Source: Marsupella aquatica (Eukaryota; Plantae; Marchantiophyta). Taken from it: DNA of 64,000 nucleotides. The DNA lies in the NCBI GenBank assembly GCA_973895155.1, contig OZ316894.1, forward strand, positions 24,364,709 to 24,428,708, given 5' to 3'. The notes under the pieces are model-generated. The model worked only from the letters and a program-made list of their open reading frames with translations, ran no database searches and had not been told where the DNA came from. The position numbers were made by a program, and so were the translations under genes. This document shows, one piece after another, positions 38,301 to 61,604 of this stretch (positions are counted from its first letter, which is position 1; each line of letters begins with the position of its first letter).

Positions 38301-39269
38301 GCGGAGTCCAGTGCTCGTCATCAGGCATGGGTCAGCAAAGGTGTCGTCACTATCATAGACTTGTCCACTGCTCTGGATTTTGACTTGATATAAACAACTA
38401 CCTCCAAGTACACCAAGTTATCATGAGTTCACCTCGTCAATTTGATGAAGACTGACATCCGAGTGCCTCGAGGACCGAATTTTCACACGATCGAGCAGGG
38501 CCATTAATTGAATCGACCGCCTACATCTCATTAGGCGATATCACTTGCCGAGGAAAAGCTCAGTATACGTAGGAAGAGAATCTGCCACTGATGAGCTAGA
38601 GGAGCGAGCAAGACCAGATGCGGACATACCGTAGTTCACTCGCGGACAACAGAATTGAACTACTTGAGAGACTGTAAGCAGGTAGGCCCGCCCTTTCGTT
38701 CTTCGCGTAATCTTCTCCCTTGTCGTCGCAAGCGCCGCTGCGACTCACTATGAACGCAGAGAAATGATGAGTGTCCATTTTCGAAAGTTCTGAGGTTTTA
38801 GAGAGGACGTCCCGTTCAGAGAATCCTTTCACTTTTGTTCTAGTCTAAAGGTGATTACTGAGATTGAAGGTGGCGTCATTGTAGAAGCGGAAAAGGGGAC
38901 TGGTAATGAATTCGGTACTAATAACGTAACATCCTGTTCAGACGAGTAGAAAGCATCACATCGAAATATACAATCCGGATATAAATGGAAGATCTATAAC
39001 ACTCGCCCATCAATCAATCCTCTAGTAATATGGCACAATACTAACACATCTGCCATGCAGTTTCTCGACTTCTAGGACTCAGAACCACCTGTTTGAGATG
39101 TTCGAGACTACTTGAATATGCGCGAAGGGAAGCTCAAATCGTGAAAGTCTGTCAATATACTCGTTAAGGAGGGAGCCAAGGGAATTGAGCGGTCTGGGGA
39201 TACATCAATCAAGCTGAACTTGGGAGTCCATATAAGAAACGGGCTTCTCATAGTTCTTAATAATTCATC

Positions 39270-40277
39270 ATGCGTGTTGGAAGCTCCCGCGTACTTCTGG
39301 CCCTCGCTATCATTTTGAGATTGTCTTCGGCTGGCTTCTTAGAAGGGGCAGAAGCAACCGGCTCAACGCATTTGCCACGATTGGAGCCGCTCAGTTACGT
39401 TAAGACCGACCGGCTCAATGTTGCCTATTATGAAGCTGGGCCAGAAGACGGCGAGGTCGTGCTCCTCCTCCACGGATGGCCCTACGACATCCACAGCTAC
39501 GTCGATGTTGCCCCTGACTTAGCTCACCGAGGGTACCGTGTTATCGTCCCATATCTGCGCGGCTATGGCCCGACAACATTCCTCTACACCGACACTTTCC
39601 GGTCCGGTGAGCAGGCTGCCCTTGGGGCAGACGTCATTGCATTGCTGGACGCACTTCACATACCGAAGGCAATCTTCGCCGGGTACGACTGGGGTGGTCG
39701 CGGGGCATGTGTTGCTGCCGCATTGTGGCCGGAGCGCTGCTCGGGATTGGTCTCGGTTAACAGCTATCTCATACAGGACCTCTCTGTTGCGTGGGTGCCG
39801 CTAGCGCCAGCAATCGAGGCTGGATTCTGGTACTTCTACTACTTCCTCACGCCGCGGGGAGCAGCGGCGTTGGCTCAGAATTCTAAGGGAATCGCTCGAG
39901 TCGTCTGGACGAAAAACTCGCCACAATGGAACTTCACAGAAGCGGACCTCGATCGAGCATCCACAATCTCGATCAACCCCGACTACGTCGACGTCGTTCT
40001 CCACTGCTATCGCCACCGACTCCTTTACGCACCCGGGGATCCAGCCTATGCCGACCTCGAGTCTCAGCTTCTGAAGCAGCCGCCGATCCCAGTTCCTGCA
40101 GTCACTCTCGATGGGCTCGCCGACGGCAATTTCCCGGCCACCAACGGATCCTCCTCTGCAAGCCACTTCACTGGACCGCGCGTACATCACCAGATACCGG
40201 GAGCTGGTCACAACCTTCCTCAAGAACGTCCGAAAGCATTCGTGGAGGCAGTCCTTGAGGTAGCTAGCCTTCTTTGA
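39270..40277 (+). CDS. Secreted alpha/beta hydrolase, epoxide-hydrolase-like, bacterial-type (335 aa)
   Basis: Signal peptide; LLHGWPYD oxyanion motif, YLRGYG, nucleophile GYDWGG, catalytic His in GHNLPQE; intronless and visibly more GC-rich than the flanks. Confidence 0.92.
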   Translation: MRVGSSRVLLALAIILRLSSAGFLEGAEATGSTHLPRLEPLSYVKTDRLNVAYYEAGPEDGEVVLLLHGWPYDIHSYVDVAPDLAHRGYRVIVPYLRGYGPTTFLYTDTFRSGEQAALGADVIALLDALHIPKAIFAGYDWGGRGACVAAALWPERCSGLVSVNSYLIQDLSVAWVPLAPAIEAGFWYFYYFLTPRGAAALAQNSKGIARVVWTKNSPQWNFTEADLDRASTISINPDYVDVVLHCYRHRLLYAPGDPAYADLESQLLKQPPIPVPAVTLDGLADGNFPATNGSSSASHFTGPRVHHQIPGAGHNLPQERPKAFVEAVLEVASLL

Positions 40278-41205: not shown

Positions 41206-44200
41206 CTACCGGCGATACCTATATCGCTTGAAGTTGAAATAAACATGTAAAATACCACGCTCAAATGTGCACTTGAAACCTTTCTTGTGTGAATACTCCC
41301 ACTCTTTGTTCACAATCCTAAATGCCTGCACAACAATCAAGACAGGGAATGACATGTCAATACCACAAGCGTACACCATCACAGCCAGCTGTGCACTATT
41401 GTTGTACCATTCGTTGTGTGCGAATTCTGAAGATACATCAAGTATTATTATCTGTTGGAAAAGCGCATGAGATAGATGGAGATAAGGACGAGGCCAAGAA
41501 TAGAGAGAATACGTAGACTTACAATATCCTCATATGGAGGCCCTGCATGGAACCGTATCAGACAAGTCTCGCCAGTGCTTCCATCTCTTTCAATGTAATA
41601 GGTAGGAGCTTTTGTTTTATCCACAAGATCAGGATAAAAGATATTGAACTTGTAGCCTTGTACAATCTTAGGGGGAGGATTGTCATGATCGTAATGCGTT
41701 TGATTGTATTTATTCCACTCATAACCGGTGTGGACACGATTGAAATACTTTGGTTTTCTTGGGCGGTACTTATCATGCCACCAATACACCTGCCAGAAGA
41801 CAAACCAAACGTTGTGAAAAGACAATAAAAACTGTGACAGGCATAAATTGAACTTAAAACAATGAACAAACCTAGGAGAAATGTGTCTGAAGAGCCCCAA
41901 TCCACAACATAACCTCACCCGGTCATCTTAGTACCTGAACGTACTGACGAAATTGAAGGCTGCTACAAAGGTAGGCGGAACGACCTAAGAACATTTGAAA
42001 GTTACCTGTGATTCAAGATTTACTTCTGACCCAATCCCAAGTATAGCATCCCCTTCCTCCATGCCTCCCATGGCCTTCAACACTAAGGCCCGCTCCGGCC
42101 CTGTTAGCTCTATGTTGTCATCGTCAGTAGTAGTTGGTCCCACAGCAGCATCCTGCAATCTGCGTTGTTGCTCTTCCAGTACCTCAGCTCTCTTCCGCTC
42201 CTGTTCCCATTGGAAAAACAACGCACTCAGTAATCATTGATTAAAGGAGCACTGCTCCTGTAGTGCTATTTCTTGGCTCAGTCACCAAACCTGCTAGACT
42301 TCTCACAAAACTAGCCACAGATACTGTCGCTAGAAGTGAAAGAATTGAGAAAGTGTGGACTTACTAGATCTGCTTTATCTGTCTCAGGATCAACCACTTC
42401 ATCGCAATCATAATCCTGAACAAGTTCAGGAGAGAAGGATCCCGGTTCGTCTTCTGCCTCCCTTGGAACATCTTCTCTGTGTGTGTCTGTTAAAAGTTCG
42501 GGAGAGTATGCTCCTGGCTCTGCACAATTAAAATATAACATTAGAAACCTATAACTGCTTCTGAAATGGAAACAAGTAAAGCGATGGGTTTCTATAGATA
42601 TACGCTCCTTGATTTAGGGTTTAGGGTTATAGCAAGTAATCCAAGCAAGAAATACCCTTAAATTTATACGGTAGGATGCCAAACTTTGAGAACAGGTTTT
42701 GTAGCAGTAGCCCCAATACTGTTCGAGAATTCGCGTTGTCAGCATAGGACAGACCTCAGTGTTTAGGGTTGGATCCCGGACTTGTCTTCTGCAAGTATTT
42801 CTTGGATAAAGAAAGCGAGTCCAGAAAGCCAACGCTAAAGGAGAAACTCTAGAGAAGATTGGGAACCCGTGAAGTGAAGAACCCGGCTGACCGAACAGTA
42901 GAAAACAAACACAAGGTAGCTGACAACTCAAATCCAGACCAATCGCCATACCTTCAGAAGCTATATCTGCAGGGTCCTCATGTTCTTCGCCTTGACTTCT
43001 GCGGTCTTCATGTTCGTCCGAGTCTTGCAGCCTTTGCAAATGTTGACGAAGCAGATCTGCATGTATTTCCCGAAGTCGTGCCTGTCACAGTTTGCAATTT
43101 AGATTTCTCCTTTCCCCACAATTCCCAGAGTAGATCAGGAGCAACCTCACCTCTTTCTTCCAAATGGATCGCACTAAAGTATCCGGGAACGTGGTTGACA
43201 AATCCAGAAGGGCTTGTGAGATACACAGGAGAACGTGACTAAAACACTGAAGCTGACAAGCTCGCTCTCAATTCTCTAGTAAAACAGGAAATGAACGGAA
43301 GATAATGTCGTGGAAGTGTGGTATTCATGGAAGTGTGTAAGTAGTTTAACGTTTGTAGACACGGTACCTTTGCCTTGTAAATGTGTAGCCTCTTGAGCAC
43401 AGCTTCCCAATATTCCACCACTTTTGCGGTGCCTGAACGCATTTGTGCCTCAATCTGAGTCTGCATTTCATCAAGCTCGTAAAAGCTCTTGCCCTGCAGC
43501 ATATCCTTGACCTCCGCATCCACACTAGAGTGAAGCCCCATGTTCTCCGCCACAAGCTCAGGTGGGGGATCCTCCCCTCGAACACGAGCTCGGTCTAGAA
43601 TATCTCTTTTCCGAGCCTCAGATATTTCCCAATCACAAACAACCATCATAGCCTCCCAAAATTCAACGTGAGTGGGAGTAGCCCGATCCAGCTCCAAATG
43701 CATCTTGATGTCAGTTCGAAGTTCTTCCATTTCTTTCACAGTCAATCCCTTGTAAATCTTATAAGGCTCGTTAATTTCAATGTCGAAGTCATCGGACAGG
43801 TTAAGGTTTTTGGACAATACATCAATTGGCTTTGCACGCCCCTCGCGTAGACGTATCTCAGACCTGACCTTACTCTGCTCAAAATGAAACTCTTCTTCCT
43901 TTTTCTCCCAGTCCTGGAACTCAGCTCTTGCTCTCTCCCTAGCAAGCATGGCCATTTCTTCTTCATGCTGAGCTTTCTCGATTGCTCTTTCCTCTCTCCG
44001 CTTCTTCACCTTTTCGATCTCAGCCATTCGTTCCACCTGTCGCCTCTTCTCTGACTTCAATGACAGCTCCCGCGGATCCAAGCCATTCGTTAGATCTTTT
44101 TCAATCTTCTTCCTCCAAACGAATTTTTCGGTGAGATTGGCATCTCCAAAAGGGTTACTATCGTTGGTGTACCCCGACACCGTCTGAGTCTTCAATTTCT

Positions 44201-44468
44201 TCGCAACTTTGAGGGCCTTCTTCTGAGCTTTCTTGCTCAAATAATCTTTAAGAGCTTCATCGGTAACTCTCTTGGACGAAGCTCTAGGAGACCCGTCTGA
44301 CTCTTCCTCGCTGGGCGATTCCTCCGTATCACTCCGCTCCCTCCGACGTCTCTTCCGCCTACTCTCTGAGTGACGAGATTTCGAAGTCCTGCTCTTCCTC
44401 CTTCGTGATCCACTGCGTCCCCTCTCTTCTTCTTCTTCTACCTCCTCAGAATCGCTGGCCCTCGCCAT
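41206..44468 (-). CDS. CACTIN: Cactin (spliceosome-associated); exons 44468-43368, 43081-42952, 42519-42365, 42200-42006, 41789-41523, 41325-41206; 655 aa
   Basis: GYTNDSNPFGD, FHFEQSKVRSEIRLREGR, KYRPRKPKYFNRVHTGYEWNKYNQTHYDHDNPPPKIVQGYKFNIFYPDL, C-terminus FNFKRYRYRR; all exons join in frame. Confidence 0.97.
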
Positions 44469-45107
44469 GTGAACTTTCTCTTTTCAAGCCTTCTCCCCAA
44501 TGCCTAATGTCAACCTAGCCCTTTCAAAAGTCGAAGCAAAAAATGCCGAACGTCCGAAGCCAACAAATTGCCTGATCAAAACGATTCACAAATAAATTGC
44601 TCGAGATGCTCGCATCAACCTTGAAAACACCCTAATTCTTGAGAAGACCCTAATTCTTGAGAAGAAAGGCCGCATCCACGGTGAGCCTCATGAAACACCT
44701 AAACCCTTCTCGGTCGACAAAAAAGCTGAAGCAAAACACGAGAAATTGGATAGCATTGTGCCTGCGAGGCTCTGTCGACCGACATCATTCCTCCACAATC
44801 TGTCACAACCTAAACAACAAATTGATGACAGTAGCTACGTCTTCCAGCCTCGCATAAACCCAATCAGTCCCCCACGCCTCTCGAAAGGTGGCAGGTCAGT
44901 CCAGAGCCTACGGTAGTCACCTTGGATTCTTACGAAACTCCATCCCTGCGATTGCTTCACTGATGCACCAGTTGCACCATCCTCATTCACGTAGTCCTCA
45001 AATTGAAACAATTCAGAACAGCACCAGCGCCTGTTTTCATTTGCTCCGTCGTGGTTCTTCGGTCACCACCCTAAGTCCTGTTTCTAAAACATGAATTCCA
45101 GAGTAGA

Positions 45108-45110
<3 letters not shown>

Positions 45111-45150
<40 letters not shown>
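45111..45150. repeat. (TC)20 microsatellite
   Basis: Seen directly. Confidence 0.97.
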
Positions 45151-45154
<4 letters not shown>

Positions 45155-45194
45155 CAGCCCTACTATTTATGTCTTTTACTATTGGTCTCCATCA

Positions 45195-45730
45195 CTAATT
45201 GACTTCTTGAACCCCTCCTCTACTTTTCTTGTTGTATATCTATGGATATGGATGGTTATAAGCAGCCTATTATGAAGGTGCAAATTTTAGCCAAATTCAA
45301 CTAATTGAGTTCTTAAACCCCTCCTCTACTTTTCTCATTGTATATCTCTATATCTATGGATATGGATGGTCATAAGCAGCCTATTTTTAAGGTGCGAATT
45401 TGAGCCAAATTCAACTAATTGAGTTCTTAAACCCCTCCTCTACTTTTCTCGTTGTGTATCTATGGATATGGATGGTTATAAGCAGCCTATTGTTTAGGTG
45501 TGAATTTTACCCAAATTCAACTAATTGAGTTCTTAATGCCCTCCTCTACTTTTCTCGTTGTATATCTATGGATATGGATGGTTATAAGCAGCCTATTTTC
45601 AAGGTGCAAATTTTAGCCAAATTCAACTAAATGAGTTCTTAAACCCCTCCTCTACTTTTCTAGTTGTATATCAATGGATATGGATGGTTATAAGCAGCCT
45701 ATTTCTTAGATGTGAATTTTACCCAAATTC
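45195..45730. repeat. Tandem array of five ~106-bp units
   Basis: Units start at 45195, 45301, 45415, 45521 and 45627 (ctaattgagttcttaaacccctcctctac...gccaaattcaa); degenerate echoes at ~45950-46060. Confidence 0.93.
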
Positions 45731-47375
45731 CACCTCCCCAAAAAGTGTTCACCACTTTTGGCTAAAACTGGCTAGATTCTTTGAATGCCATTAGCCACTT
45801 CCCACCAAATCATGGACCTCATTTGCCAGAATCTAATGGTAGTCTGTGAATCTAGGGATATCTGATAACGAATATTCCTAGCATCTCTTCCCTTAGAGCA
45901 GCTGGCATTTGCCACACTGGCTGAAAACAAAAAACTTTTAAAATAAGGTGGTTATAAACCATTAAACCTCTCCTCTCCTTTTCTCTTTGTATTTCTATGG
46001 ATGATTGTAAGCCATTAAACGTCTCTCTACTTTTCTATGAATGTTTCTATGGCTAGGGGTTTATGAAGTTTGTGAAAGGTGGCTGGCCCCTCTAGAGGAT
46101 TACACAATTGCTTTACGGTAAAAACTAGAGCAAAAGTACACTTGAATGGGGCTTATACTTGATAATGCATGGCTACTGGTGGGGTGGGGGAAAAGGGGGG
46201 CGGCATGGGTAATATACCCTACACATCAACCTAGCGGCGTAGAGAGTCGGTACTTGTTGGCTTTCCTTGGATGTAGTCCTTTGGAGAGAAGAACACAAAA
46301 AGTAGAGGGTAAAAGCCCCCATGCCCGGGTGTTGAATCTTATTATTAAAGAACGAACTGAAGCCTAGGTCTAGAGTGAAACCTCTAGACCCTAACTCCCA
46401 AGCCTCTAGACTGTAACTCCCAACACACACAAAATTGATAATGAGTCTCAATAAAGAGTCCCCCACAACTCCAACAGAAATTCACAATTCCCTATGCCTA
46501 CTATTAGGAAATTCAAGTGTTAAGAACCCAATGGGTCCCACTCTAATAGGTTGCCTGCCTCCTTCCATTAAGTTTATAAAAGTTGGGTCCCACTCTTTAA
46601 ATTTGCCCGCCTGCCAGTTTTTATTTAGGTGATAAGAGTTGGGTCACACTTTTATTATAAATGTTTCCTGCTTGCCCATTTCTATTTAGGTGATAAGATA
46701 ATGACCTCCACTTTCTCCAATGTGTCAAGTGTTTTATGAAAAAAAGGCTTTGGTCAACCCAACTTTGGGATGGGAGTTTGTGCAAAAGTTGGTCAACTGA
46801 GGAAGCTTGAACTGATAATCTTGCTTGCCACAACTTATACCATTGGGCTATGCTTGCTGGGACAATTTTAGAAAATCCTGCCCTTATGTGGATGGCATTC
46901 TAAAATGTGACAACACCCTCATGTCTTCAACTTGTGTGCATGATGGGGTAACACAATTTGCACCCAATCCAACAAACAGCAATAAATTAGTTTGCAAGGA
47001 ACTCAAATAGTTTTGCTTGATTGTGCTCCCAAGTTGATAAAAAGTGAAGTGTGACCTGTTCCTATATACGAATGGCTAGGATTGCATCTCCCACATAGAA
47101 AAAAAGTAATTGCTGCCCCCAAGTTCTTATAAAGCCACGCTTAGGTGAAAGTTCCGATGAAAACAGGACAAAAGTACACTTGGGTCTATGCCTAATAATC
47201 CATGGATAATTAGTATACCCTAAACCCAGGCCTCGCAAAATAATATCGCACCCTGGAGGCAATTAGTTGGCCCACAGTTCATAGGTGATAAGAGTTGAGT
47301 CCGAATCTTACTGGAAATGCTGCCTACCTGTCCATCCTAACCCGGGGGTTCTGAGCCTCAGGAGAAAGTCTAGGA

Positions 47376-47520
47376 TAATGACGGTCTGGTCGACCGTTAC
47401 TAGGTTGTAATGGGACGACCAGGTTCTGACATAGTTGTGACCGGCGGTAGCCGGGAGCGACTGTGGAGGAACCGGGGAGGGCCAGTACAACGTAGTAACG
47501 GACGACCGAGATCGTTATTA
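47376..47520. repeat. Imperfect palindrome with ~34-bp arms and a ~75-bp spacer
   Basis: 47388-47409 ggtcgaccgttactaggttgta pairs with 47486-47507 (20/22), and extends outward with one gap. Confidence 0.85.
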
Positions 47521-48144
47521 ACGTACGTAATCATGGTTTTTAGTCCATATTACCGGCTGTGACCAGTTCAATCAATCGGGAACGTCGATGCAGTGCGAGC
47601 CGTGGCAGCGGGGTAAAGAAGGAAAGGGGCGCCTAGCTCCTCATTCAACATTTCGAATTGTGTTTGAGCTTTGGGCGGAGGCGACAAGCAGTAGCACCCG
47701 ATTTGAGTTTGAGCTTCGTGCAGACGAGCAGCAGTAGCTGCCAACGATGAAACGATCAATAGCGCCAATGGAGAGCTTGAATGCAATGGAGATCAATGGA
47801 GCGATGGAGATCAATTGAGTACAGTGGCAATGAGCGGGGAATGGCAGCATCGGGTTCAAATTTCTTTCAGCCAAGAATTGCTAGTTTCTTGGAGCGGTGA
47901 CTGGCAGATGACAATCTTGTTTCCATGCAAGTTGATGAAGGAATGGCGAGTTGCATGGAGCGGGGAGTGACCGATATCCTTTTTGAATTTGTGTTTGTCT
48001 ATGCGAGTTGCAACAGCGCCTTGAAGACAGTTGAGTTGCATACAGTCGAGTTGATAGAAGACTCTCATTCGCTGTGTACCTACAATCTTTTTAGTAACTA
48101 TGTTAGCCCAGGTCGAGAGTTTGGTCTCATTCTCTGAAATACTA

Positions 48145-51100
48145 ATGTCGATAGCACCCATGTTTGCTGGATGTGAAGTCTTGGACGAAGAGATGGCGGA
48201 CGTGAGTGGGGGAATGCAAGTGAGTGAGAGCATTGTTAAGGACGTGAGTGACAATTCAGGGACAATCGACAGAGCAATAACCGATGTTGAAGAGCACTGG
48301 AGCTCTGAAGACTCTGATTTCCTATTAGTCGATGAGTTGATCGCTGGTGAGGAGATGGATGTAGATAGTCCTGATTTATCAAATGTTTTTGATGAGTTAT
48401 CCAGAGAGAGTGCAACAGTCAATATCGTCACTGTTCTTGCTGAGAATTGTGTAAACATTCCTAACGACGGACAGATCGAGGCTACAGAGGCAACAAAGGT
48501 AAGCATGCCAGGGCTGCGGGCGCTCCCCGACCCTGGTTTAGCAGATGCAGGGAAAGGAAAGGAGAGACTTCCTTCAGAGAACAATGACAAGTGGGCCTCG
48601 AAGCGAGCTAACGACCTGAGGAAAGGGTTAGGTTGGGACATGTCTATAGGTTTAGGAGACTTGCCATTGAGGCAACTCGATGAGTTATTGAGTAACCTAT
48701 TTTCCAGAGTTGTTAAGGTCGATGGGACACCTTATCCCTCATCCACGCTTATGAACATGTGTAATGGATTCAATCGGATCATCAGAAGAGCGAGTGACAT
48801 CAGGTCCTTGACAGAACAGACAAATCTAGTTGAGAGAGACTTCAACATAAACTCTCATCCAGCATTTGCAAAAACGCGGATGGTTGTCGTTGCTGCAATA
48901 AAAAAAAGCGCGAAGGAAGGACTAAACAAGAAGAGGCTGAAAGTGAGTATTACTTGATTCATAAGCCTTTCGCACTTACTGTATTGTTTAGTCCTTCCGC
49001 ATACTGTTCTTTTAATTGAAGCAAAATCATCTGGCACCGATGGTAGTGCAATAGGTGCATTCTATGTAAAATCTTGTTGAATTCCTACCTCCAGCCGCAA
49101 ATGCTTTGTGCTCACTCTAGGCGACCGATAATCTTTGAGCTCCTTCGCATAGGCACGTCACTCAAGGTTGGTTTCCTGATGCACTGGAGGGGAGTTCATT
49201 GACACGAGGTTTAACTCCCGACAGAGAGCAGCTATCAGCTATCAAAATCGGTCTTGTCTAAGTCAGAAATGTGGAGAGCTTGTCCGAGACCGAATGGGGT
49301 CATCTCAGACAATTAATAGACCTTCTGACTTGGGAGTCATCCGAGAACAACGTTCAGGGCTTAAGCTACGATGTTTCTGCCAAAGATGTGGCTCGGTGTC
49401 GTACTTAACAGGGACTTGTGAGGACGCAGCTGACTCAGTCTTCCCAAGGTCGCTCATCCTTTGATTCCCTGTTCTCAATGTATCGATATACTAGAATTAG
49501 CAATGTGCACCACTATTCTCAATTTGCTAAGTCACAGACTTCAATTCACTAAAACAAAATAAAATCTAATCGTACGCAATGAGTGCCCGACTGAGTGGAA
49601 CAACTGGACGTGATGATCGATCCCGACTGAGTGGAACAACTGGACATGATGATCGATCGACTCAGCTATTCTGTGACCGCAAAGCTTGTAGGGGGATGGT
49701 CCATCGACTATCTGTCCTGGCTTTTGCCTGTGTTCTGGAGTTAGAGACTTCAATGCACTGTCTGATTTCTGATAGACTTTTGGTTGTGTTTTGTTGCAGT
49801 CGGAAATACTGACGGAAGAACACGAGAAAGCAATTTTGGCAGACATCGACCATCAAGTGACATCAAGCCATGGATGCCAAAAACGTTTGGCATTTTTTTT
49901 CCTTGTCAGGCTCGGTATTCGTGGAGGCATGGAACTGTGGAATTTACACAGAGATGATATTATTGTCTGCACTGATAGGTCTGGGAAGGAGTATGTGAAG
50001 TGAGTGCTCGATTGAAACCATGAATGAGTTTAATTGTTTGATGTTATATTTCCTCTTTCTCAAGACCCGCCCTGTGAGACTTCCCTGTAATAGAGCCTAT
50101 CCACGGGAGAATGGAACCTGCGGCTGACACTCTTTGGTTTGCGCACTCTTTCTAAGAGTTTTACTGATGTTCGTGTGGCAGATTTGAGGAGCGATTAAGT
50201 AAGAACAACAACTATAGCATGGATCGTTACAGTGAAGAGCAATTCAGAAATGTTTATCATAGTTACGAAGATGATTTTGTCATGACAGTAACACAATATA
50301 AGCGTCATCTGCCATGCCCTGAGGAGACAGAGAAGCCTGATTTGTTTATGCAGGCTATAACTAACCCTGTTAGCATTGTGTGGTACAATAAGTGTCAAAA
50401 AGTTGGGAAGGGGGCTGCAGGAGGTTGGCTGAAGAATATGGCGTTACTTGTGGGATTGCCCCCTGAAAATTTTACAAACCGAAGTGGGAGGGCAACATTA
50501 GTGACGCGCATGGCTGCCAAAGGAGTGCCTGACGAGGTAGGCATGGCCATAACTGGTCATCGCAGTACTGGAGGGTACAAGAGATACGATAGAACTCAAA
50601 AGTTGAAAATGGAAGCTGCAGCCTTAGTCTCCTCAAGTCCGAATGTGGATTATGGACAGGCACTAGCTCACGTGTCAAAATCTTTCGTGGAGGAGGAGTT
50701 AGTCGGTTCCTCTACAGCTTTGAAACCCTTGATTGACAGGGTGAGTGAGAAATTCAACATGCAATTGGCGTTGCAAAATGGAGTACAGGTGAGTACGTAC
50801 TGGATTTTGCAATCTATCACTTCCGAAAAATTACGGACTACCGCCTCATTTCGATAAGAATAACCTGTCTACAATTCTTCGTGAAGTTTGAACTACAAGA
50901 AAGAATTGTCGATCTTCCATGAATGCATCGATCTCTCAGCGGTCCAAGAAGTGAAATCGGCACGTCGCGAGGCGACAGAAGGATCTGTCTCTATCTCTGT
51001 CTCCGACCTTGTTTTTGACTCGCATAGTTTTTCAACTTGTACATTTTGTGTCTTGTTCGTCCTTAGGGGTTTTAGTGGAGAGGGGAAGAGCATCGCAGCT

Positions 51101-52801
51101 CTGTTTTCGGAAAGGTGTCTTTATGTATTATTGTCTGATTGTAAATTTGTGTTCAGCCGGAAAACAATGTCTAACCGACTATACCAGAATTGTTGACCAG
51201 AATAATTATCTGTTTTTCTTCTTGGATTATAGGGATCGAACACACCACAGAAGCAAGAGTTGGCAATAACACAGAACAACCAGGTGAGTTGTTGGTGAGG
51301 TGTTAGTAGTGAGGCTCTGTGTGGTTGGCATTTCAGACAAACGCCTGTCTTGAGGCATCGCCGTCAAGACACCTTCGCTCTTCAAAAGATTTACGTCAAA
51401 AGAGCTCTTCAAAAGTGTGTATCTATGGCTTCGGTCAATCTGCTCTGTGGTTTTTTTCTTGTGTGTGTCCACTTTACCTAGTCTCGGGAAGAGTTGGCGG
51501 TCGAAGAGAGTAGGAGAGGGGAGAGAGCTCAAGGTCATGTCCATGCAAACAGCGCTATGGGAGGTCGGTGACTGGTGTGACCTAAATCAAGACTCGGACT
51601 GGCTCTAGTGTCTGTCACATGTCAAAATAGGGCTCGTTAGGTTTCTGGTGTGTTTCTCTCCGCTTCGTTTTCATCTGGAAAGGATAGGAGGAGATGGTGT
51701 TCTTCCTCGGGGCAGGGGCTGTAGGGTGGCTGTGATGGAGCCTCGCTTTTGAGCTTATTCCGTGTTAGTGGGGCGAGTTTGATACCTGGGACTTCACAGC
51801 TAACTTTTGTCGGCAGTAGTACCGTGTTCCCTGATGTTTCCATGAGGGAAAGGCTATTCAAAGTTTTCATGTCTGCTGACAGTGTAGTATTGCGCTTTTA
51901 AGCGCAGGATTCCTTGTACGTTCGGTTTTAGGCACGGGTCTATTTGGTTCCTTTAATTGGAAGGATTTGGTGGTGTGGATTGGAGCTCGGTAGTCCGGGT
52001 CCTTCCGTTCTTCCTTTCATATTACCTTTCAGGAGTCTGCCTTGCAGTAGTCTGGTGATTTTGATTAGCTTGGTTCCCAGTGCATCGCGTCGAGCGGAGA
52101 TTTTTTTTGTTGTCTCAATAATCATACATGTCTCAGCTATAATATCTGCCGTAATCATCTAGTGATTTCAAGTAGATTTTGTTTTCGGATTGACCTACTT
52201 GTAATTGACTTCCATGTTTCTTCTTTTTTGTGTCTTTCTTTCCTCAGCTCTTCAAAAGATCGTGTGTGCTATTACGTCCTTATTCTGAACCAAGCCCCTA
52301 AATTGTGATCGACTTGGCTGGGATTGTGCAATCGAAGTCATAGTGACAGTTGTGTGAAAATTATAAAATTAGGGTAAGATTTTGCCTTGCTCGCCCCGGG
52401 TAGCCTCGTAAAACTACGACAACCATTTTTGAAGTCCAAAGAATAAAGTAAGGCAGGTGCAGAGGGAGAGTATGTGACCCGAATGAAATTGCCCCGTAGA
52501 GCTTATTAATTAATTTTGTACTTTTGGCTATTCTCAACAGTCAAACTCAAATGCTGTGAAGGTGTTGCAGGCAAAGAGGGACGAGTCAGAAATTCCTTAC
52601 TATGATGATGGTTTTGACTACGAGAGTGAATTTGCCAAGGATCCGATCCTTTACAAACGAATGTGCGGGAGGGCGTTTAAAAGGCCTAACGTGTCTGTGA
52701 AGAACAGCTTGACAGGGAACCAATTTCACAATTGTTCCGTCACAATCAAGATTGTGCAGCCTACTAAGGAGGAGGAGGAGAAGGAGAATATGACATTATG
52801 A
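48145..52801 (+). CDS. Tyrosine recombinase of DUF3504/Crypton type; exons 48145-48942, 49800-49999, 50182-50788, 51233-51283, 52571-52801 (start and last two exons tentative)
   Basis: LDELLSNLFSRVVKVDGTPYPSSTL (SAM-like), catalytic R in LGIRGGMEL, K in SKNN, TNRSGRAT, TGHRS, Y in YKRYDR, C-terminal FHNCSVTIKI; spliced frame is open with GT-AG introns; possible extra first exon 47925-47966 joined to 48112. Confidence 0.85.
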
Positions 52802-52844
52802 ATTTAGACTTTGGCAGTGAAGAAGTCAGATATGATAGTTTTGA

Positions 52845-52956
52845 CAATAAAACTTTAGGATTAGCTCAATAGACAGATCATGAATCTGCGTAGGTTTGAT
52901 AGATTTGGCAATAAAACTTTAGGATTAGCTCAGTAGACAGATCATGAATCTGCGTA
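52845..52956. repeat. 48-bp direct duplication (period 64) downstream of the YR stop
   Basis: caataaaactttaggattagctca(a/g)tagacagatcatgaatctgcgta occurs twice. Confidence 0.9.
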
Positions 52957-53189
52957 CGTTTTCAGTTCCTATCTACTATAATAGGCCAGACAGATGAGTC
53001 ATGTATGACATGTCACTACAATTTAAAGTGTAGCAATGAGGCCTACAAATAAAGTGAAAATTTCTTCAAAAAATGTTACTTTCATTGGGCATGAGTCTCA
53101 CAAAATCTGTCGTACTTGTTGTCCACTATTCATTGACTGATGCCACCTACTTCCATGCGCTGGCTGCACCTTTCAAAATTGAAAGATAT

Positions 53190-53325
53190 TGTGTCAGGAT
53201 GTAAATTTACACAAAGACATTTTGTCAGGACTCAAAATTACGCTGTCAGGAAGCAAACTTATAGTGTCAGAAAGCAAACTTACGGTGTCAGGCAGTAAAC
53301 TCACAAGAAAGTGGTTGTGTCAGCC
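53190..53325. repeat. Cluster of six TGTCAG-core repeats (~21-bp spacing in the middle), subterminal in the YR element
   Basis: gtgtcaggatgtaaatttac, tgtcaggactcaaaattac, tgtcaggaagcaaacttat, gtgtcagaaagcaaacttac, gtgtcaggcagtaaactcac, gtgtcagcc. Confidence 0.8.
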
Positions 53326-53657
53326 ACCAACATTATGCAAATGGTGAGGTCCGCCAGATCCTTTCACCAGACGGTAACATGGACTATAGACCAAGATTAC
53401 GTTCTGTGTTGAAAAATTGGACAAAAGTACACTCTGGTCTATGTCTAATAATCCATAGTCACCAAAACCCATGCCTCACAAAATAACGTTCTGGGCGTTC
53501 AGTTGGGCCACAGTTCAGTGCAACACAACGCTGTCTAGCTTGCACCTACTAACTCCAGTAAATTCATTGTCTTCAGACATCACATCTAATGCCCTTCATC
53601 CATCTCATCCCGTGTGGGCCTACTCTAGAAACACCCCTTTGACGACTTCCAATCCTT

Positions 53658-56600
53658 TCACCAAAACTTCAGGCGTAACCCGAAAAACTCCACCACAGCC
53701 ATTCCTCCAACAAGAGTTGCGAGGTACCCAACCAAGATAAGCATGGCCATTACAGAAGACGCAGAGATGGTGTCCACAGTCACATTCACCAGGCCTGTTA
53801 GAATATTGCCCTGTTGAAGAAGACAGCACAACAGTTTCACCAGTTGAAGTGAATTTATCAGGATAAGAATGTTGCATCGGCTCAGTAATATCACTTAAAC
53901 CCCTATACTCTTCAAGAAAAACCGGCGTAGTGAGGCTGAACGTAATGGAATCTGTCCTCGAGAAACCCATAACGAGTATAATCATTGAAATACCGAAGCG
54001 AACCAGTTGTGTACGAGCTTGCTTCAGGAAGTTTGAACATGTGGACAGAGGCCCAACCTATCTATCCTCGAGTCAGAAGTAATAAACATACCAATAGGAA
54101 AGTAGGTAGCAAGTTGTGATCAAAGATCTGTAGAAGAAGCATTTGCTTAGATGGAAGAAGCGCATCCGCGGTAATAAATATGGCTATGACCTGCACCACA
54201 ACGTTCCTACCTCGAATTGAGATTCCTCCATAAGCCAGAAGAAAGGTTTGGAAATAAATCATAGTAAAATGAAACTTGGCTTGAAGAAAAGCACCCTCCG
54301 CGTCGTTTGCAAATATCTACGGTAAAATTAGTAAGCTAGGAATGAATATTTGTACCTCCAGGTTCATAGCAAAAACAAACATCACGTACGAAAGGTTGCA
54401 CTGCCAACAACCAAATTCAGTATAAGGAATAGGAGAAAAGTACGCTTAAAGTTCTATCGATCATTTTGCAAAAGCAATAAAACAGGTAGCAGTTAAAGTT
54501 AGTACCATATTGGCAGGCCGCCAAATCCAGTTTTTCACCGATTGACCTGTGTCTATTATTGACAACAATTTGAACATGCACCATCTACTTTAGATCTTTG
54601 AAGCTCAAACGCTTGACTAATATACGGGGATTGGGTGAAACTTAAATTTGACTGGATTAGAGCAATGACGGGCTCGGAAAGCTAAGGCAGAATTGGCACT
54701 AGTCACCTTACCAAGGTTAGCTCCGATTTCAACAAAACTTAAACTACAAACCAATAATGCAAGCAATCTGTTGAGAGAACTTCGGCTGGCAGCTATGACG
54801 ATAGATCCACTAGTCAAGAAGGTATGATCAGAGTTGCACTGCTCACTAGTTCTAAAACCAGAAGATCAGGCGAGATAGTACGGGTGGTCCTATTGTTGTT
54901 CTTGCTGAAAGGTTACCAGGTGATGTTAAATACTACCTTTTTGGCATCACAAACAAATACCTAGACATGAAGTACCTTCTCTGCACCTCGGTACTGAATG
55001 GCATTCCTAGAGCGAAAGGAACAGGGCGTCATTATGACCGGGTAAGCGCAGTCATTGAGCACAGCCAGAGTGTAGAGTTTATGGTTGAGTGCAAAGTTTT
55101 TACCATGCGACGCGAAATTCTTTCGATGTATAGATCTCCAAAAACAGCAAGGGACCTACAAAATTACAAATCAATTAGGTCTCGACGATTCCTCCCTCCT
55201 ACTTGTCAAAAGCCGTGTTTCGATTCAGCACTCAATTTCTGTAAACAAGACAAGATCATGACAAAATCTGGAAGAATGGAGATCGCAGAAATGCAACCCT
55301 TTGGTATTTGGAATTACCACAAGATAGCATCGAGAACCCAAACATCAATTGCGACTGACCAGGGAACTGTCCCTGTTATTCTCCTTTTTCTTCCAGTCTT
55401 AGTAGATATATCATCATTTCGATACAGCGTTCTTTCTGGAGGAAAAAGAAGATAGTGACCCAGTTGCACACTGATAAGATAGATACTCCAGTACCCTGCC
55501 AGATCAACGTAAAAAGCTTTATTGAGGAAAATGCAGCGGAAACTTGATGCCATTATCATAACGACAGTGATTTACTTGTGGGGAATTACTCCTGCTTCAA
55601 CTGCAACAGCCAAGACTAAACGCAGGATCTGAAATGTGCAAAGATGTGGGCTGTGGATTTACCAAAGATGCTGAAAATGCCTTCTTTGTTGAGGCTGACC
55701 AGGCTGGGGCCACGTTCAGGTGAAAGCAGGTACTCATTCAAACCAGAAGATAAAATTGTCTGGTACACTGCCACATAGACTCTTATAAGACGAAAACTCC
55801 GACTTCGTCTTTGAAGCAAGCCCAACTTTCTTGAAGGGGAATGAACAGAAGTGCAGTAGTCTAACAATTAAATTGTATATGAATGTGTAAAGCCTTCATC
55901 ATGCATGAGCTGCTCCTAAGCGTTCTGTTTCAAGTAGTGTTTATCATCAAATCGTGGCCGGGGAAAGGAATTCTCGATAGACCTCATCAAAGCGTGAAAA
56001 TAAAGAAACCCTACACTAGCACCAATACCTCCGAGAATAATCACTCCCAAGGCTCCACAGTAAGAGGCAGGAACATGGACTAAAGAGGTCAAGAGTGCCA
56101 CTCCTGCAAGAGTGAAGAAAAAATTCCAGTGCACCCCATACTCTGCAACATGCTCCTGTGCCACATCAGAAAGAAAGCTAGAGCAGACCATAATGAAGAA
56201 ATGAACAGAACTCGAAGGGCCCATGCAGTAATTGACCCGACAAACCAAAGAAATAATTGTGTCTTCGCAAAGGGACACATCTGATGAACTCTTCACGATT
56301 CAAAAATTACATAAAATTCTAATTCTAATGAAAGTAAAAAAGTTGCAATTTGTTTAAAAGCTCACTCTTTGCATGAAAAGCAGACTAGAAGATATCGTGC
56401 ACTTGCACAGCACATTTGCTTCACTACAACTACAGTAACAACAATTCAAGCAAGCTTCGAATAAGGTGCCCCATAGGAACTGAATTGACAATATTTACAA
56501 GAGAAGCTTTCCATAGTCCATAGCACAACAGTTTGAGACAAACCTGATAATCGACACCCTTGGTCAATATGAGCCTGGAAAATGCAAGCACTAGTAGAGG

Positions 56601-59541
56601 ACACGTGTTGCGGAGCACCCCTCCATTCTTCCTGTGCTGGCAATTCATCCTATATTAGCTCTATTCCCTGGCTTGCAAAACAATAAACTGGGATAACCTT
56701 GCTAACACCAAGTTAACACCTATACCTATCATCTATCGGGACTGAAAGAAAGCATTAGCAGACACACTGCACCTAAGATATAGTACCAAAACGAACTGAT
56801 GATCTGAAATGAAAGATGGGGATCACTTACGAGGGAGGCAATTCTCGTGCCTGCCTTGAAACGAGGCCATTGGCAACGACAAATGACCCAACTCCTACAT
56901 CCATCTGCTAGCCAATCAACTACGACTTAGTACCATTGCTTGCTGCCCAAAATTGATCACTAGAAGCAACAGTCAGTTGGAAATGCTTCTTTCTTCGTGT
57001 ACCTGATTTGCCCTACATGCAATACCCTGACCATTAAATATCTGCTTTACACAAGCTGCATGATACTTTCCTCGTCCCAAATCGACTGTATCCAACCTGA
57101 GCTCTTCGACTTAAATACCAAATTGAACTGCCTGAGAACTGATCAAACTTAGACCCGAAACCTATCTAATTCCGCATTGTGAGCTCAATAGTCCATGAAT
57201 GAAGCTGGCAGACACATCAATATGAATAAGTGATCCAGGAAGTATCCATCAAAAAGCGCCATAAACACTGACAGAATTCCAGGATCATACTCACCAGCCC
57301 AGTCCCATAGGTCTCTGTTTTCGCATATCGTCTTGGGAAGACGTTAAAATCCACAGCAAGGATGCTCACACATGTCACCAACATCTGCACGTACTCACTT
57401 CAATGTAATATCAACGTAAGAATATGATACAAAGAACTCTGTTAATTCGAAAACCGAGCCACGGAAAACCAGAGACTCCTCAAAGAAGGGAAATAGATCC
57501 GGGTTTCCTCTATCGTTGTGTTGGATTACCATGGTAAATCTGAAAGATGACAAAAACGTTTTGCGAAAGTTTGAATTGTGGTCTAGTTGTTGAGAAGTTG
57601 GCTCCATACCTCCTTGCGAACTAAACCTACACAACGCGCACTATCAGGTTCAATTCCACATTTCCACTTTTAGCATCATCTAGGCAAGCCAAAATTCAAG
57701 ACATGCAACAGATCTTCGTGGAACGTAGAAGTGTCAAAGTAGATCGCAAATTGCAAATCACGCCAAGACCATATCATGCACAAAACCGTGATCAAGCGTT
57801 ACAATACTCGGATTGAAGACGTCCCCTGATGGGAACAAACTGTAGACTCAACCTATACAACCATTTGTTTCTTGGCAAAACGGAAGTCAGAAAGTAACCT
57901 CCACAGGCCGGCAATGCCTACTAGTATGAGGCACAGACAAACTGTTGTTACAAGGTACACCCAATCTGCAAGGACCTGCACGGAACAGATATATCATATA
58001 AACTGCAAGTACAGTACTCTATTTTATGCCAAAGAGCATCCTCTTGGTCAACTCCATAGTGGACAAATCGCTCCAAATCATCAGCGTAAGTCAACCATTC
58101 AGGAGAACAGGGACGATGATCTAGAAACTTCCATTCAAAGATTACCTTTACGTGTTATTAAGGAACGGGCTCTATGTAACTGAACTTACTGTCCAAGCAC
58201 GAATCAAGAATGACTTACACGACACCATCACCAAAACAAAACAATAACCCACAAAGAAGAGACGTTCGACGCGTACCGTTAGACAAGCAATTGTAGGAAG
58301 ACCTACAAAAACGACGTCCTTCACCAGCATGATCACGTATGCTTTGCCATCCCTGCCCTTGTCTTTCTGCTCATTGTGGCAAATACTGTTGCTTACATAG
58401 TTTGCCTTTGATGCTACACACAACCGGAGAAATTCGTTAGGAAGCGCAATGACCTTGTTCGGAAGACTCTGGTCACTTTTCTACTGGTGCAATCTACTCT
58501 TCAAGTACATTTACGAGCGACGTGAAAAGATGCGTCCCTGTAACAACTAAGATGTGCAGACTTGCTCGGAAGCTTTGCCTAGGTTTGGCTTTCTTGAAAA
58601 CTAACAATCTGGACAGAGAATAGCTTAAACCATCAGCAGGATTACAAAAATACCCTTCCCAACGGTGTCGTACAGAGTGAGGACTATTAACATACTAAAA
58701 GTGCTACACTCAAGTTCTGGTAATTCTGGGCTGAATTCTTCCAGAGCAAACAATTGAAATAGTGTAAAACTTACTCTTTGACCCAACTTCCCTACTTTGA
58801 ATAAACCTACAGATTGGGCAAGTTTGTACATTCCACTTAGGACTTTCAAGGAATCGTATAGTATCTCTCAGTTATTCTTTGAAAATCCAACATGACAAAC
58901 GTGAAGAACGTGACGTATTATACTGGTCTTACATCCAGCAACTCTTACTGCACAATTCGGGAAAAGACATTACCGGATAGAAGAAGGTCAAATAGTTGGC
59001 GCAGAAGCACAAATATCTGAGCCGCCACAAGATGCAAGTCCAGTGCAGAGTCAGAGGAGCAGGGAAGACCAGCCAGAATATTTTGAAGCGCAAAATTATG
59101 GCCCTATCGAGAAGAGAACCTGCTCAAATTGGATTACTCTACATCCCTTCATTGCAAGTAAGAGCTCAATACTGATACAACAAAAGAAAAGTGCGTACGA
59201 CATTTGCTTTATCATCTAGGTACCACAGAATGACGTACCGGAACAATAGCTGACAAAGCTGCAATCTCCAACATTGTGGAGCCACGTAAATTACTCACAA
59301 ATCTTCAAGCAAAGTTGCAGAGTAATTTTAGATCCAGGGAAAATACTAAATTTTTGTGGTTCCAATTGATGCAAGTGGGGGCCGACCGAAAGAGAGTCAA
59401 TAGAATTCAAATATGATGATCACCTTCCCGAACCAGCATGCAATCCATTACAAATATTGCTTTGGAAAAGTTGCTCACGCACTCTTGTTTGCGTTCTTTG
59501 AGCCCGAAACCAGCAAGTCCAATTTCATCTGAAGTCTCCAT
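53658..59541 (-). CDS. PIGW: GPI inositol acyltransferase PIG-W/GWT1, many short exons
   Basis: Exon peptides [70 protein letters not shown]|[36 protein letters not shown]|[14 protein letters not shown]...LRLKFW*; ATG at 59541-59539. Confidence 0.93.
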
Positions 59542-61604
59542 GGCCCCCAGCCAATGATTCCCGAGCTAGTGCGGGGCTCTACAGGATTCCTTCCTTCCGT
59601 CCCTCCTGTCCGCAGGACAAACACCGGGTGACACAGGGAAACATACTAATGTAGCATATTATATGAGGCATGATGTTTGGATGAGAGCCTCACAAGGGGT
59701 TACAAGCTTAGGTCTGACCACATAGCATATATGTGATAACTTGTACAACAAAGACAGCAAAGTACACAAACTTCTCAGATAGCCGATCAATGCTGAAGAA
59801 ATAAATGAAAGAAACAGGACCCCTCAGCTCCTACATATTCGCAATTACATGCTCCAGAAGTAAAGCTCAGGAACTCCAACCAACAGCAAATCTATCGACC
59901 CAAACGCCACAATACGACTAAAGCAACCAACACCACACAAGTTGCATTAACTTCTTGGGACGGAAACGATGGACAAAAAGCTAACATGCCATGCACCCTT
60001 TGACTTTTGGATCGTCACATCTCAAGTGAAGCAGTCCTCATTCTACGTGGACACCTCCACCAAATTTCGAGAGACAAACGCAGGACCTGATTTCTACGTC
60101 TGAAGCTTCCAAGGCGAGTCATAGTTCCTATATCAAGGACAGTGCTCACATATAAAATCGGTAAATTGGTTTTCCGGGTGTTCACCAATTTCTATGATAC
60201 AGAATGCACGGCAAAACACAGATTGTCGACAGGTAGCATCAACGATAAATTTATGTTGGAAAAAACCCTAGACTTCAACAGATGAAGACGCCATACATTC
60301 TAGATCAAGCACTATTGTCAGGATCAAGCATTATTGTCAGGGACACCACAGAATAGCTTATGTTGAATGACCACTTCTACTACAGGAGACACGAACACCC
60401 GAAACCCAACTGAAGTGGAGAAAAACAAGGTTGGAAAGGAGCCGGACAGTCCTCGACCTCTCAGAGAGCGCTTGGTAAGGCCTCCGATCGAGATAACTGA
60501 GTCGCAACCCTATAATCGTCTTGGCCGATTGCAAAGCCTCGCCGCTTGACTGATTCTCTTGCAACTGAACCTCAGCCTCAGCAAGCACATTTTGCCATTT
60601 TCCTCTCGTCTCGTGCAGCTCAAGATCTTCTTCCTCCACCCATCATCAACTCACTGCTCCATACATTGCGAAATGTGTCCCAATTCCTTCTGCAAAATTA
60701 TGAAGTTTCAGGTGCCCCAATTGGCGTCTCTTCACAAACTCTCCCAATTATGATTTTCAGCCAATTTTAGTTTTCAGCTGTAGACATTGGGTCAAGTGTT
60801 TTATGAAAGGTTTTGTACACAGGCACTGTGGGGAACTGTCTCCTACACCAGCTTAGGAGAATTGGCGAGCTTGGGTAGGCTAGAACGAGATGGGGCGGGG
60901 AGGCACATTACATGCACATTAAGGATTTGGCGAATTGAGTTTATGCAGGGCAAGGTGGCAAAGTGGAATGAGCCCAATGTAATGTTGTGAACTCCCTTTG
61001 TCTACTTGTCCAAAGTTGTCACATTATGGTCTTCTCATTTTGGTCCAAACAGAACTCCTTCTCACTTGGAGAGAAAGACATCCCAAAGCCCTTCCAGCAT
61101 TTTAAGCCCTATTCAAATCTTGGGCAGTGCAACCTATAGAGGATGATTAACTTGGGGGGATGATTAACTCAAGGTGGATTCTGTGAGCAAAGATGTACCT
61201 CGCAAGAGCATGCACATGACAAATAGTCAACATAGTGAGATATGTGGTTCACTTTCTTTGATGAGACTATGTCAATAGAAACACATAAGAACTATATTGC
61301 ACTCTAGACCCATCAACAACATCAAGTCTCATTGTTACGGAACCACTTGAAAGATATGTAACCACAGATTTTTGACCCACAACCCTTGCACAAACCAGCC
61401 TGTACATAGTCGTGGAACTCGACTACCTCAACACTTAGCTCCGGCTTCACTGACTCCAACGCCGAGCTCCCCTATGGTCTAGGCCCGGAACGGTCATCGG
61501 GGGAGGACTTAGCATGGGGGGACTCTTGGGCAATGGGGCGTGGCATTAGCGAAGGCAATGCGCTACGCTGGTGACACACACTAAGGACTTAGACTAGCTG
61601 AGGG

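Follow-up and report, generated by a model that had tools for sequence, protein, structure and literature searches.

A 64,000-nucleotide stretch of the genome of the liverwort Marsupella aquatica (contig OZ316894.1, positions 24,364,709 to 24,428,708; hereafter the window) carries, between the host genes cactin and PIG-W, a 6035-bp element with one spliced gene for a tyrosine recombinase. We read it, with a probability of about one half, as an unbroken Crypton, polymorphic between haplotypes, that is moved by its own recombinase through a circle whose plus strand folds on an inverted internal copy of the element's joined ends, here called the junction mirror. That the recombinase represents a land-plant branch of the CryptonA/DUF3504 family, in a recently mobile element devoid of reverse transcriptase (RT), is very probable; once this identity and mobility are granted, the folded-strand route is favoured by a narrow margin. 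The extent and ends of the element are as follows.

47368 to 53402, plus strand: whole element, 6035 bp, GT at each end
47368 to 47375, plus strand: left terminus, GT and six nucleotides without partner in the mirror; predicted crossover or spacer
53364 to 53402, plus strand: right terminus, ending in GT; pairs with part 2 of the mirror
53192 to 53324, plus strand: six subterminal repeats containing GTCAG, mostly spaced by 21 bp; possible protein-binding sites

Evidence on copies and haplotypes was drawn from assembled contigs of sequencing runs X1 to X6, at least 94% of words being present in four of the six; X5 was left out, as its 151-nt pieces identical to the window were read as carry-over. 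Contigs of other copies part from the window at position 47368 (two in X1, three in X2), and among the contig ends listed at least one loose end in X1 lies at 53401. The contigs specific to this locus in X1 end at 47397 and resume at 53373; with a word length that we take to be 31 letters, these breakpoints delimit the shared stretch as 47368-53402. The terminal direct repeat consists of GT only, 2 bp as against 4-6 bp in the Crypton literature, and in one diverged copy the agreement is limited to the G. When the first 60 bases of the element are compared with the last 60, the longest exact match is 7 bp in inverted and 6 bp in direct orientation, hence there are no terminal inverted repeats and no long terminal direct repeats. 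A direct repeat at 47160-47281 and 53413-53517 (71% identical) was rejected as a pair of terminal repeats: it lies outside the ends and is retained in the empty allele. It is an older local duplication split by the element, with a third partial copy at 46122.

An empty cactin-PIG-W interval, which the earlier note on this DNA had proposed to look for, is found in X2. It takes the form of a single contig, 258 nt long and of depth 22.8, in which 47243-47348 is linked to 53414-53531 by 32 letters. Compared with the window by eye, these letters are one extra G, then a stretch agreeing with 47349-47369 at 20 of 21 positions, and finally ten bases matching the right flank from 53403 on. A single GT is thus left in the empty allele, with no element bases and no footprint, and there are no carried-over target bases either there or at the ends of the element. 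On its right side, the contig has seven listed substitutions and two insertions in common with an X6 contig extending into PIG-W, which assigns it to this locus. Its depth matches that of a second haplotype at 53780-53829 (22.3); together with the shared differences, this indicates that X2 contains two haplotypes, one with the element and one without. In X6 both flanks are covered while cover of the element is patchy and diverged; no contig listed for that run crosses the site, and it was not counted.

The recombinase gene is composed of five exons.

48100 to 48942, plus strand: exon 1; likely ATG at 48100, the ATG of the earlier note at 48145
49800 to 49999, plus strand: exon 2; carries the catalytic Arg I (49920)
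50182 to 50788, plus strand: exon 3; Lys (50201), Arg at the His II position (50480), Arg II (50489), His III (50558) and Tyr (50585)
51233 to 51283, plus strand: exon 4; 51 bp, predicted only; the frame is open with or without it
52541 to 52801, plus strand: exon 5; conserved C-terminal motif and stop; E 5e-7 against residues 649-706 of the Calypogeia fissa protein P0001

Spliced from 48145, the exons give 638 codons with no internal stop, in agreement with the open frame of about 630 residues read earlier; an alternative in-frame ATG at 48100 gives a protein of 653 residues. Judged from the sequence, the latter is the likelier start, because the alignment with P0001 begins already at 48115. 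All four introns open with GTGAGT and close with YAG. P0001, the sole match of the first protein search, is 51% identical to the spliced protein over 585 columns, and the tblastn pieces obtained with it split exactly at introns 1 and 2. Alignment ends of homologues (n = 149) cluster at the same places, 24 falling within three residues of intron 2 and 11 within three residues of intron 1, for a median of 4 per 7-residue window. The catalytic codons previously named for the R, K, RxxR, H and Y positions are all as given: Arg CGT at 49920, Lys AAG at 50201, Arg CGA at 50480, Arg AGG at 50489, His CAT at 50558 and Tyr TAC at 50585. The earlier note had thus placed the gene correctly; the extent it gave for the element was too short, and both the ends and the inverted junction copy were missed. 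The window and the near-identical contigs of X1, X2 and X3 disagree at two bases, 49447 and 50469, the second difference changing codon 429 from Asn to Ile; the cause may be either copy differences or base errors.

The family assignment rests on several comparisons. In the Atlas, exon 3 adjoins a DUF3504/Phage integrase cluster (score 0.98), the two families being found on 54% and 61% of its members. A search of 1.84 billion representatives with P0001 returned 561 matches at E ≤ 0.001. Thirty of the best 150 were looked up, and all 15 that bear a species name come from non-seed land plants. The plant genera with homologues are Calypogeia, Riccia, Marchantia, Ceratodon, Selaginella, Diphasiastrum and Adiantum (two species); going by sequence, relatives of the recombinase occur in liverworts, a moss, lycophytes and ferns. 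The Marchantia homologue carries the UniRef label 'DUF3504 domain-containing', and the DUF3504 cut-off is passed by 23 of the 54 homologues scanned, one of them from Riccia, most of which also match QRICH1 or Phage_integrase. Aligned by HHalign, profiles of 26 plant-type and 21 DUF3504-passing proteins match with a probability of 100% (E 5.6e-53 over 345 columns), and the positions of Arg I, Lys, Arg II, His III and Tyr coincide. No match to DUF3435, the family of Starship captains, was obtained in the Pfam scans of the exons, P0001 and the homologues, and the element has 6 kb and one gene. A sequence search of the PDB gave no match.

For the structure we used an AlphaFold model of P0001, the 51% identical Calypogeia homologue. 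Its mean pLDDT is 67, with values mostly above 85 across residues 200-570. In a fold search Cre/Tre comes first (E 9e-8, TM 0.65 by target length), and a chain of the SEPHS1:QRICH1 complex is found at E 9e-5. In a quick tree of 48 rows, built without outgroup, a single branch (SH-aLRT 99) separates the 19 rows of the land-plant group, among them the window recombinase, from the 21 DUF3504 rows, and the window recombinase is sister to two Calypogeia proteins (SH-aLRT 100). Five of 53 rows had been dropped, P0123, P0124, P0247 and P0250 for low coverage and P0190 as a fused duplicate; the tree holds no named CryptonA/F/I/S, DIRS, Ngaro or Starship rows. Altogether, the HHalign homology, the Cre fold of P0001 and the land-plant cactin next door support the earlier proposal of a Crypton/DUF3504-type recombinase in a land plant.

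The catalytic set of the window protein is R-R-R-Y instead of the R-H-R-Y tetrad, with Lys and His III also kept. Among 26 plant-clade and unnamed rows, the His II position is occupied by Lys in 19, Arg in five, Pro in one, Thr in one and His in none; among 22 DUF3504-type rows it is His in 17. Arg at this position is shared with Calypogeia proteins that are about 50% diverged and keep all other catalytic residues. In archaeal and haloviral integrases, His II is replaced by Lys (SSV1 integrase), Tyr, Thr or Ala (PMC5861418; articles are cited by PMC number throughout, in each case for the excerpts of the text available). The Arg is thus a family trait, probably compatible with catalysis, and is best read as derived from the Lys of most plant-clade members. 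The earlier view of it as a lineage variant and not a sign of decay stands, but with Lys, the plant norm (19 of 26), and not His as the likely starting point.

The element is present in more than one copy. Single contigs inside it have depths of 57-70 in X1, as against 23-25.5 for the flanks, and of 91-121 as against 45-48 in X2; the ratio of element to flank is 2.3-3 in X1 and about two or more in X2. The listed element contigs show zero or one difference each, introns included, the intron 1 contig having depths of 57 and 91. We estimate two to three near-identical copies in these runs. Together with the insertions that start at the same base and the empty site, this depth check bears out the earlier suggestion of a possibly mobile element. 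Copies about 90% identical exist as well, and one diverged contig has a stop at codon 498. The observed/expected ratio of CpG is 0.75 in the element and 0.24 in the neighbouring repeat patch. None of the seven contig joints listed leads from the right end to the left end; as contigs drop rare variants, this is uninformative on circles.

The left end of the element contains the junction mirror.

47376 to 47445, plus strand: left arm of the terminal hairpin; opposite 47450-47520 it pairs in 52 of 71 columns (z -9.1, 200 shuffles)
47450 to 47520, minus strand: mirror part 1, inverted copy of the left start of the element, pairing with the left arm
47525 to 47562, minus strand: mirror part 2, inverted copy of the element's final 39 bases; pairing in 33 of 39 columns with a score of 46, none of 300 shuffles exceeding 27

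Part 2 sits 4 nt past part 1 and ends on the complement of the element's terminal base; no second stretch resembling it occurs elsewhere in the 64-kb window. Read on the minus strand from 47562 to 47450, the mirror is a copy of the junction that the joined ends would form, save for a gap of six versus four bases beside the GT. All 18 mismatches of the hairpin are G-T or purine-purine on the plus strand (binomial p 8e-6), while those of a control inverted repeat in the window split 34 to 32 between the strands. This one-sidedness suggests that the left arm is likely selected to fold as a single plus strand, whether DNA or RNA. Folded as DNA, the plus strand of the hairpin reaches -44.5 as against -30.4 kcal/mol, and as RNA -96.0 as against -61.6. 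An Rfam search gave no match at E ≤ 1. In the literature covered, which does not extend to Repbase, subscription journals, figures or supplements, we found no description of a junction mirror in Cryptons.

We propose the following route. The spliced mRNA would yield a Cre-like recombinase with the active site Arg-Lys-Arg-Arg-His-Tyr, which would join the ends of the element at GT to give a circle. In one strand of this circle, the junction would anneal with 47450-47562 into an imperfect stem of about 110 bp, leaving an unpaired 6-by-4 loop beside the GT. The recombinase would then bind this stem and swap one strand with a chromosomal site, needing only a short match at the cut, and replication would resolve the resulting junction. 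Such a single-strand exchange would explain why two matching bases suffice, why the copies seen share their left end and why copies accumulate. The attC sites of integrons are recombined only as a folded single strand, with a 3-base microhomology and replicative resolution (PMC4792948). By this analogy, the element may be autonomous and active, a land-plant transposon whose folded single strand is inserted at a GT-only target, as a eukaryotic counterpart of integron cassettes; we put this proposal just short of even odds. Active Cryptons of Chlamydomonas excise cleanly yet rise in copy number, a gain left there as a complex mode (PMC9977147), and according to a 2026 review the mechanism of Cryptons has never been shown experimentally (PMC13565253).

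Several observations weigh against this reading. Every step of the mechanism is inferred. The empty site was seen as one contig in one of three runs (X2), X1 and X3 may be the window's own source, and the contigs that span the junctions carry 30 element bases, one fewer than the 31-base bridging rule. Contig depth does not equal copy number, and the X1 ratio of 2.3-2.5 is no whole number. Pfam scans of single exons and of the whole P0001 gave no DUF3504 or Phage_integrase match above threshold, the latter reaching E 0.13. Arg is not among the His II substitutions tabulated in the excerpts of PMC5861418, so that catalytic activity is putative. The mismatches of the right-end part of the mirror show no strand bias (3 to 2), and the bias of the left hairpin fits an RNA hairpin at the 5' end of a plus-strand transcript equally well. 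Finally, 47402-47947, and the mirror with it, is missing from one copy that is about 90% identical (joint in X1, X2 and X3), and a second deletion joint, 47488-47940, occurs in X2. Such copies may be dead relics or a sign that the mirror is dispensable; unless the first is a relic, it counts against the mirror being necessary. The 15 letters that bridge the joint 47401-47948 start with the same seven bases as the left terminus.

The published model of Crypton movement has a double-stranded circle recombine with a short matching target. Applied here (Goodwin model), it would make the element an active Crypton all the same, and the mirror an RNA hairpin, a set of accessory binding sites or an old accident. 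It predicts the short direct repeats at the ends and the clean empty site (PMC3212892; PMC9977147), suits a strand bias that RNA explains as well as DNA, and has no difficulty with the diverged copy that lacks the mirror. However, an RNA hairpin would not call for the far right terminus to be copied up to its last base, 4 nt from the copy of the left start. Junction and target, moreover, share only GT, less than the 6-8 bp spacer described for these enzymes (PMC3212892), and carried-over target bases are missing from the empty allele and from the ends. We regard this as the most serious alternative, possible though on balance unlikely.

The remaining alternatives concern the enzyme, the template and the host. 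The element may be mobile while its own enzyme is weak or dead owing to the Arg at His II, with a related copy supplying the recombinase. The prevalence of His among DUF3504-type relatives (17 of 22) is compatible with this, but the persistence of the same Arg in the diverged Calypogeia proteins, with their other catalytic residues intact, the Lys norm of plants and the tolerance of this position in other integrases (PMC5861418) make it improbable. Hardly more credible, and if anything slightly less so, is a DIRS-like route, in which an unspliced transcript would be copied by RT provided in trans by another element and the mirror would be an internal complementary region (ICR). In its order, left start and then right end, the mirror agrees with the DIRS-1 ICR, and DIRS-1 requires its ICR, makes single-stranded cDNA and has an RT that works in trans (PMC7192593). 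The DIRS-1 ICR, however, shows exact complementarity and is placed between inverted long terminal repeats (LTRs), close to the right end (PMC7192593). The present mirror is 73-85% complementary, lies at the left end and has no terminal inverted repeats to accompany it, and it therefore cannot serve as a template in each cycle. The near-identical copies also retain their introns, the recombinase is of DUF3504 type, and no RT was found in the non-exon frames of at least 90 residues or with the one RT query.

A domesticated single-copy host gene like ZMYM/QRICH1, the empty allele being a deletion, would account for the intact gene with four introns, for its gene-like CpG content and for the existence of catalytically dead relatives in lycophytes and Marchantia. 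It is very improbable nonetheless: other copies, though flanked differently, share the starting base, the empty allele is exact down to the GT, and five of the six catalytic positions are canonical. Misassembly or contaminant DNA, fungal, animal or other, can practically be dismissed, even though described CryptonA come from animals and from Glomeromycota, which colonise bryophytes (PMC13465315), since the best cactin matches with a species name and all 15 named recombinase homologues belong to land plants, non-seed ones in the latter case, and contigs connect the element with its flanks, at both ends in X1 and at the right one in X3. The earlier note had named a domesticated single-copy gene and a non-plant contig as grounds for abandoning its proposal, and neither is what we found.

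Like animal CryptonA and Glomhopper, the subfamily found in Glomeromycota (PMC3212892; PMC13465315), the element has a single gene, a DUF3504-type recombinase with a QRICH1-like N-terminal part, no RT and no terminal inverted repeats; Glomhoppers often bear introns too (PMC13465315). It differs from them in its land-plant host, the Lys or Arg at His II, a sub-threshold Pfam DUF3504 and a branch of its own (SH-aLRT 99). Its ends are defined, whereas terminal repeats were not found in animal Cryptons and the boundaries of Glomhopper were unclear (PMC3212892; PMC13465315). It also has an inverted junction copy, of which the excerpts of these two articles make no mention for CryptonA or Glomhopper. 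With CryptonF-1_cRei of Chlamydomonas reinhardtii it shares the green lineage, a short donor motif that matches the target, clean empty sites and, next to the rising copy number there, several copies here (PMC9977147). That element, however, is a member of the CryptonF group with a GCR1_C domain (PMC3212892), not of DUF3504 type; its motif is the 5-bp CACCG/CAYCG in place of the 2-bp GT, and its activity was observed where ours is deduced (PMC9977147).

DIRS-1-type elements likewise combine a tyrosine recombinase with an internal region that is complementary first to the left start and further on to the right end (PMC7192593; PMC8969392); here, by contrast, no gag, RT or RNase H was found, there are no inverted LTRs, the mirror is imperfect and at the left end, and introns are retained. 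The comparison with integron attC and the attP of CTX phage is functional only: common to them would be a tyrosine recombinase site rebuilt by folding of one strand, along with a strand-biased fold and a very short target match (PMC4792948). The present element, unlike attC, is eukaryotic, encodes its own enzyme and has a much longer stem, and its use of a single strand is a prediction. ZMYM2-4, QRICH1, KCTD1 and KIAA1958 share the homologous DUF3504 domain but are fixed and have lost most catalytic residues (PMC3212892), whereas the window copy keeps five of six and is polymorphic.

We found no description of a land-plant Crypton, within the same limits of the literature covered. Kojima and Jurka report Cryptons from fungi, animals and stramenopiles (PMC3212892), the excerpts of the Glomhopper paper name no plant members (PMC13465315), Cryptons are stated as not described in Arabidopsis (PMC7385966), and the excerpts of PMC11630846, PMC8969392, PMC8371274, PMC9406493 and PMC12617341 contain no plant case. 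So far as these sources go, the element belongs to an undescribed land-plant branch of CryptonA-like elements; its ends are fixed to the base, an empty counterpart of its site was seen, and its junction mirror calls for an explanation. The order is thereby extended to liverworts, mosses, lycophytes and ferns, and there are hints of domestication in plants alongside that of ZMYM/QRICH1. Few eukaryotic transposons are as poorly understood as Cryptons, and the window copy offers a set ready for experiment: the gene is unbroken, the ends are known to the base, there is an empty site, and the predicted structure is specific. If the folded-strand route is true, it explains how an excising element gains copies, and provides a plant-native recombinase with minimal target needs.

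Three groups of homologues deserve mention in their own right. P0182, P0189, P0281, P0197 and P0210, from Diphasiastrum, Selaginella and one unnamed source, form one clade (SH-aLRT 100) in which Arg I, Lys and Arg II are lost in all five rows; the clade is nonetheless preserved in two distant lycophytes and is a candidate for a plant domestication parallel to ZMYM/QRICH1. P0148, P0294 and P0295 belong to one 90%-identity cluster that spans Marchantia polymorpha and M. paleacea, P0148 being without His III and having a Pro in the motif; it is a candidate for a second domesticated gene. In Adiantum capillus-veneris, two groups of near-identical copies on separate records (P0135, P0272 and P0273; P0131, P0138 and P0141) suggest recent Crypton amplification in a fern. 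In Calypogeia, homologues occur on five records that differ in length, in line with mobility. P0137 and P0274 are uninterrupted plant-clade recombinases of 819-843 residues on 10-kb JGI contigs, one of them on 12 contigs; neither the metagenome scan with P0274 (67 pattern matches) nor that with alignment A4 (66) brought up a relative. In P0201 a fragment of the recombinase is joined to an RT that looks gypsy-like by eye, and the whole is read as a chimeric gene model.

The host genes on either side were both confirmed by Pfam, in keeping with the insertion between cactin and PIG-W originally described.

41451 to 44483, minus strand: cactin, flanking host gene outside the element; extent approximate
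53658 to 56654, minus strand: PIG-W/GWT1, flanking host gene, from Pfam exons; start possibly further right

The last exon of PIG-W ends at 53658, its stop lying about 255 bp from the right end of the element. For cactin, all species-named proteins among the 120 best matches are from land plants, with up to 80% identity; the search covered proteins of 205-653 residues only and may exclude bryophyte cactins. RT and RNase H families are absent from the six non-exon frames of at least 90 residues inside the element, and a single gypsy-type RT query found no match in the window better than E 2.2. Within these frames and with this one query no gag, RT or RNase H was detected in the element, as had been noted before.

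Elsewhere in the window, X2 joints at 41786-42021 and 43637-44298 (depth about 37) hint at a second, deleted or diverged copy of cactin. An intronless alpha/beta hydrolase frame at 39264-40277 looks microbial by eye and may have been acquired horizontally. The tracts 45129-47367, which reaches up to the left end of the element, and 59879-60500 contain a 106-bp tandem array and high-copy repeat patches; summed X2 depth exceeds 1000 in the first patch, which is depleted in CpG, and is 820 in the second. The inverted repeat used as control for the hairpin, 61605-62145 and 63235-63992, is long, about 72% identical, and perhaps marks the ends of another transposon.

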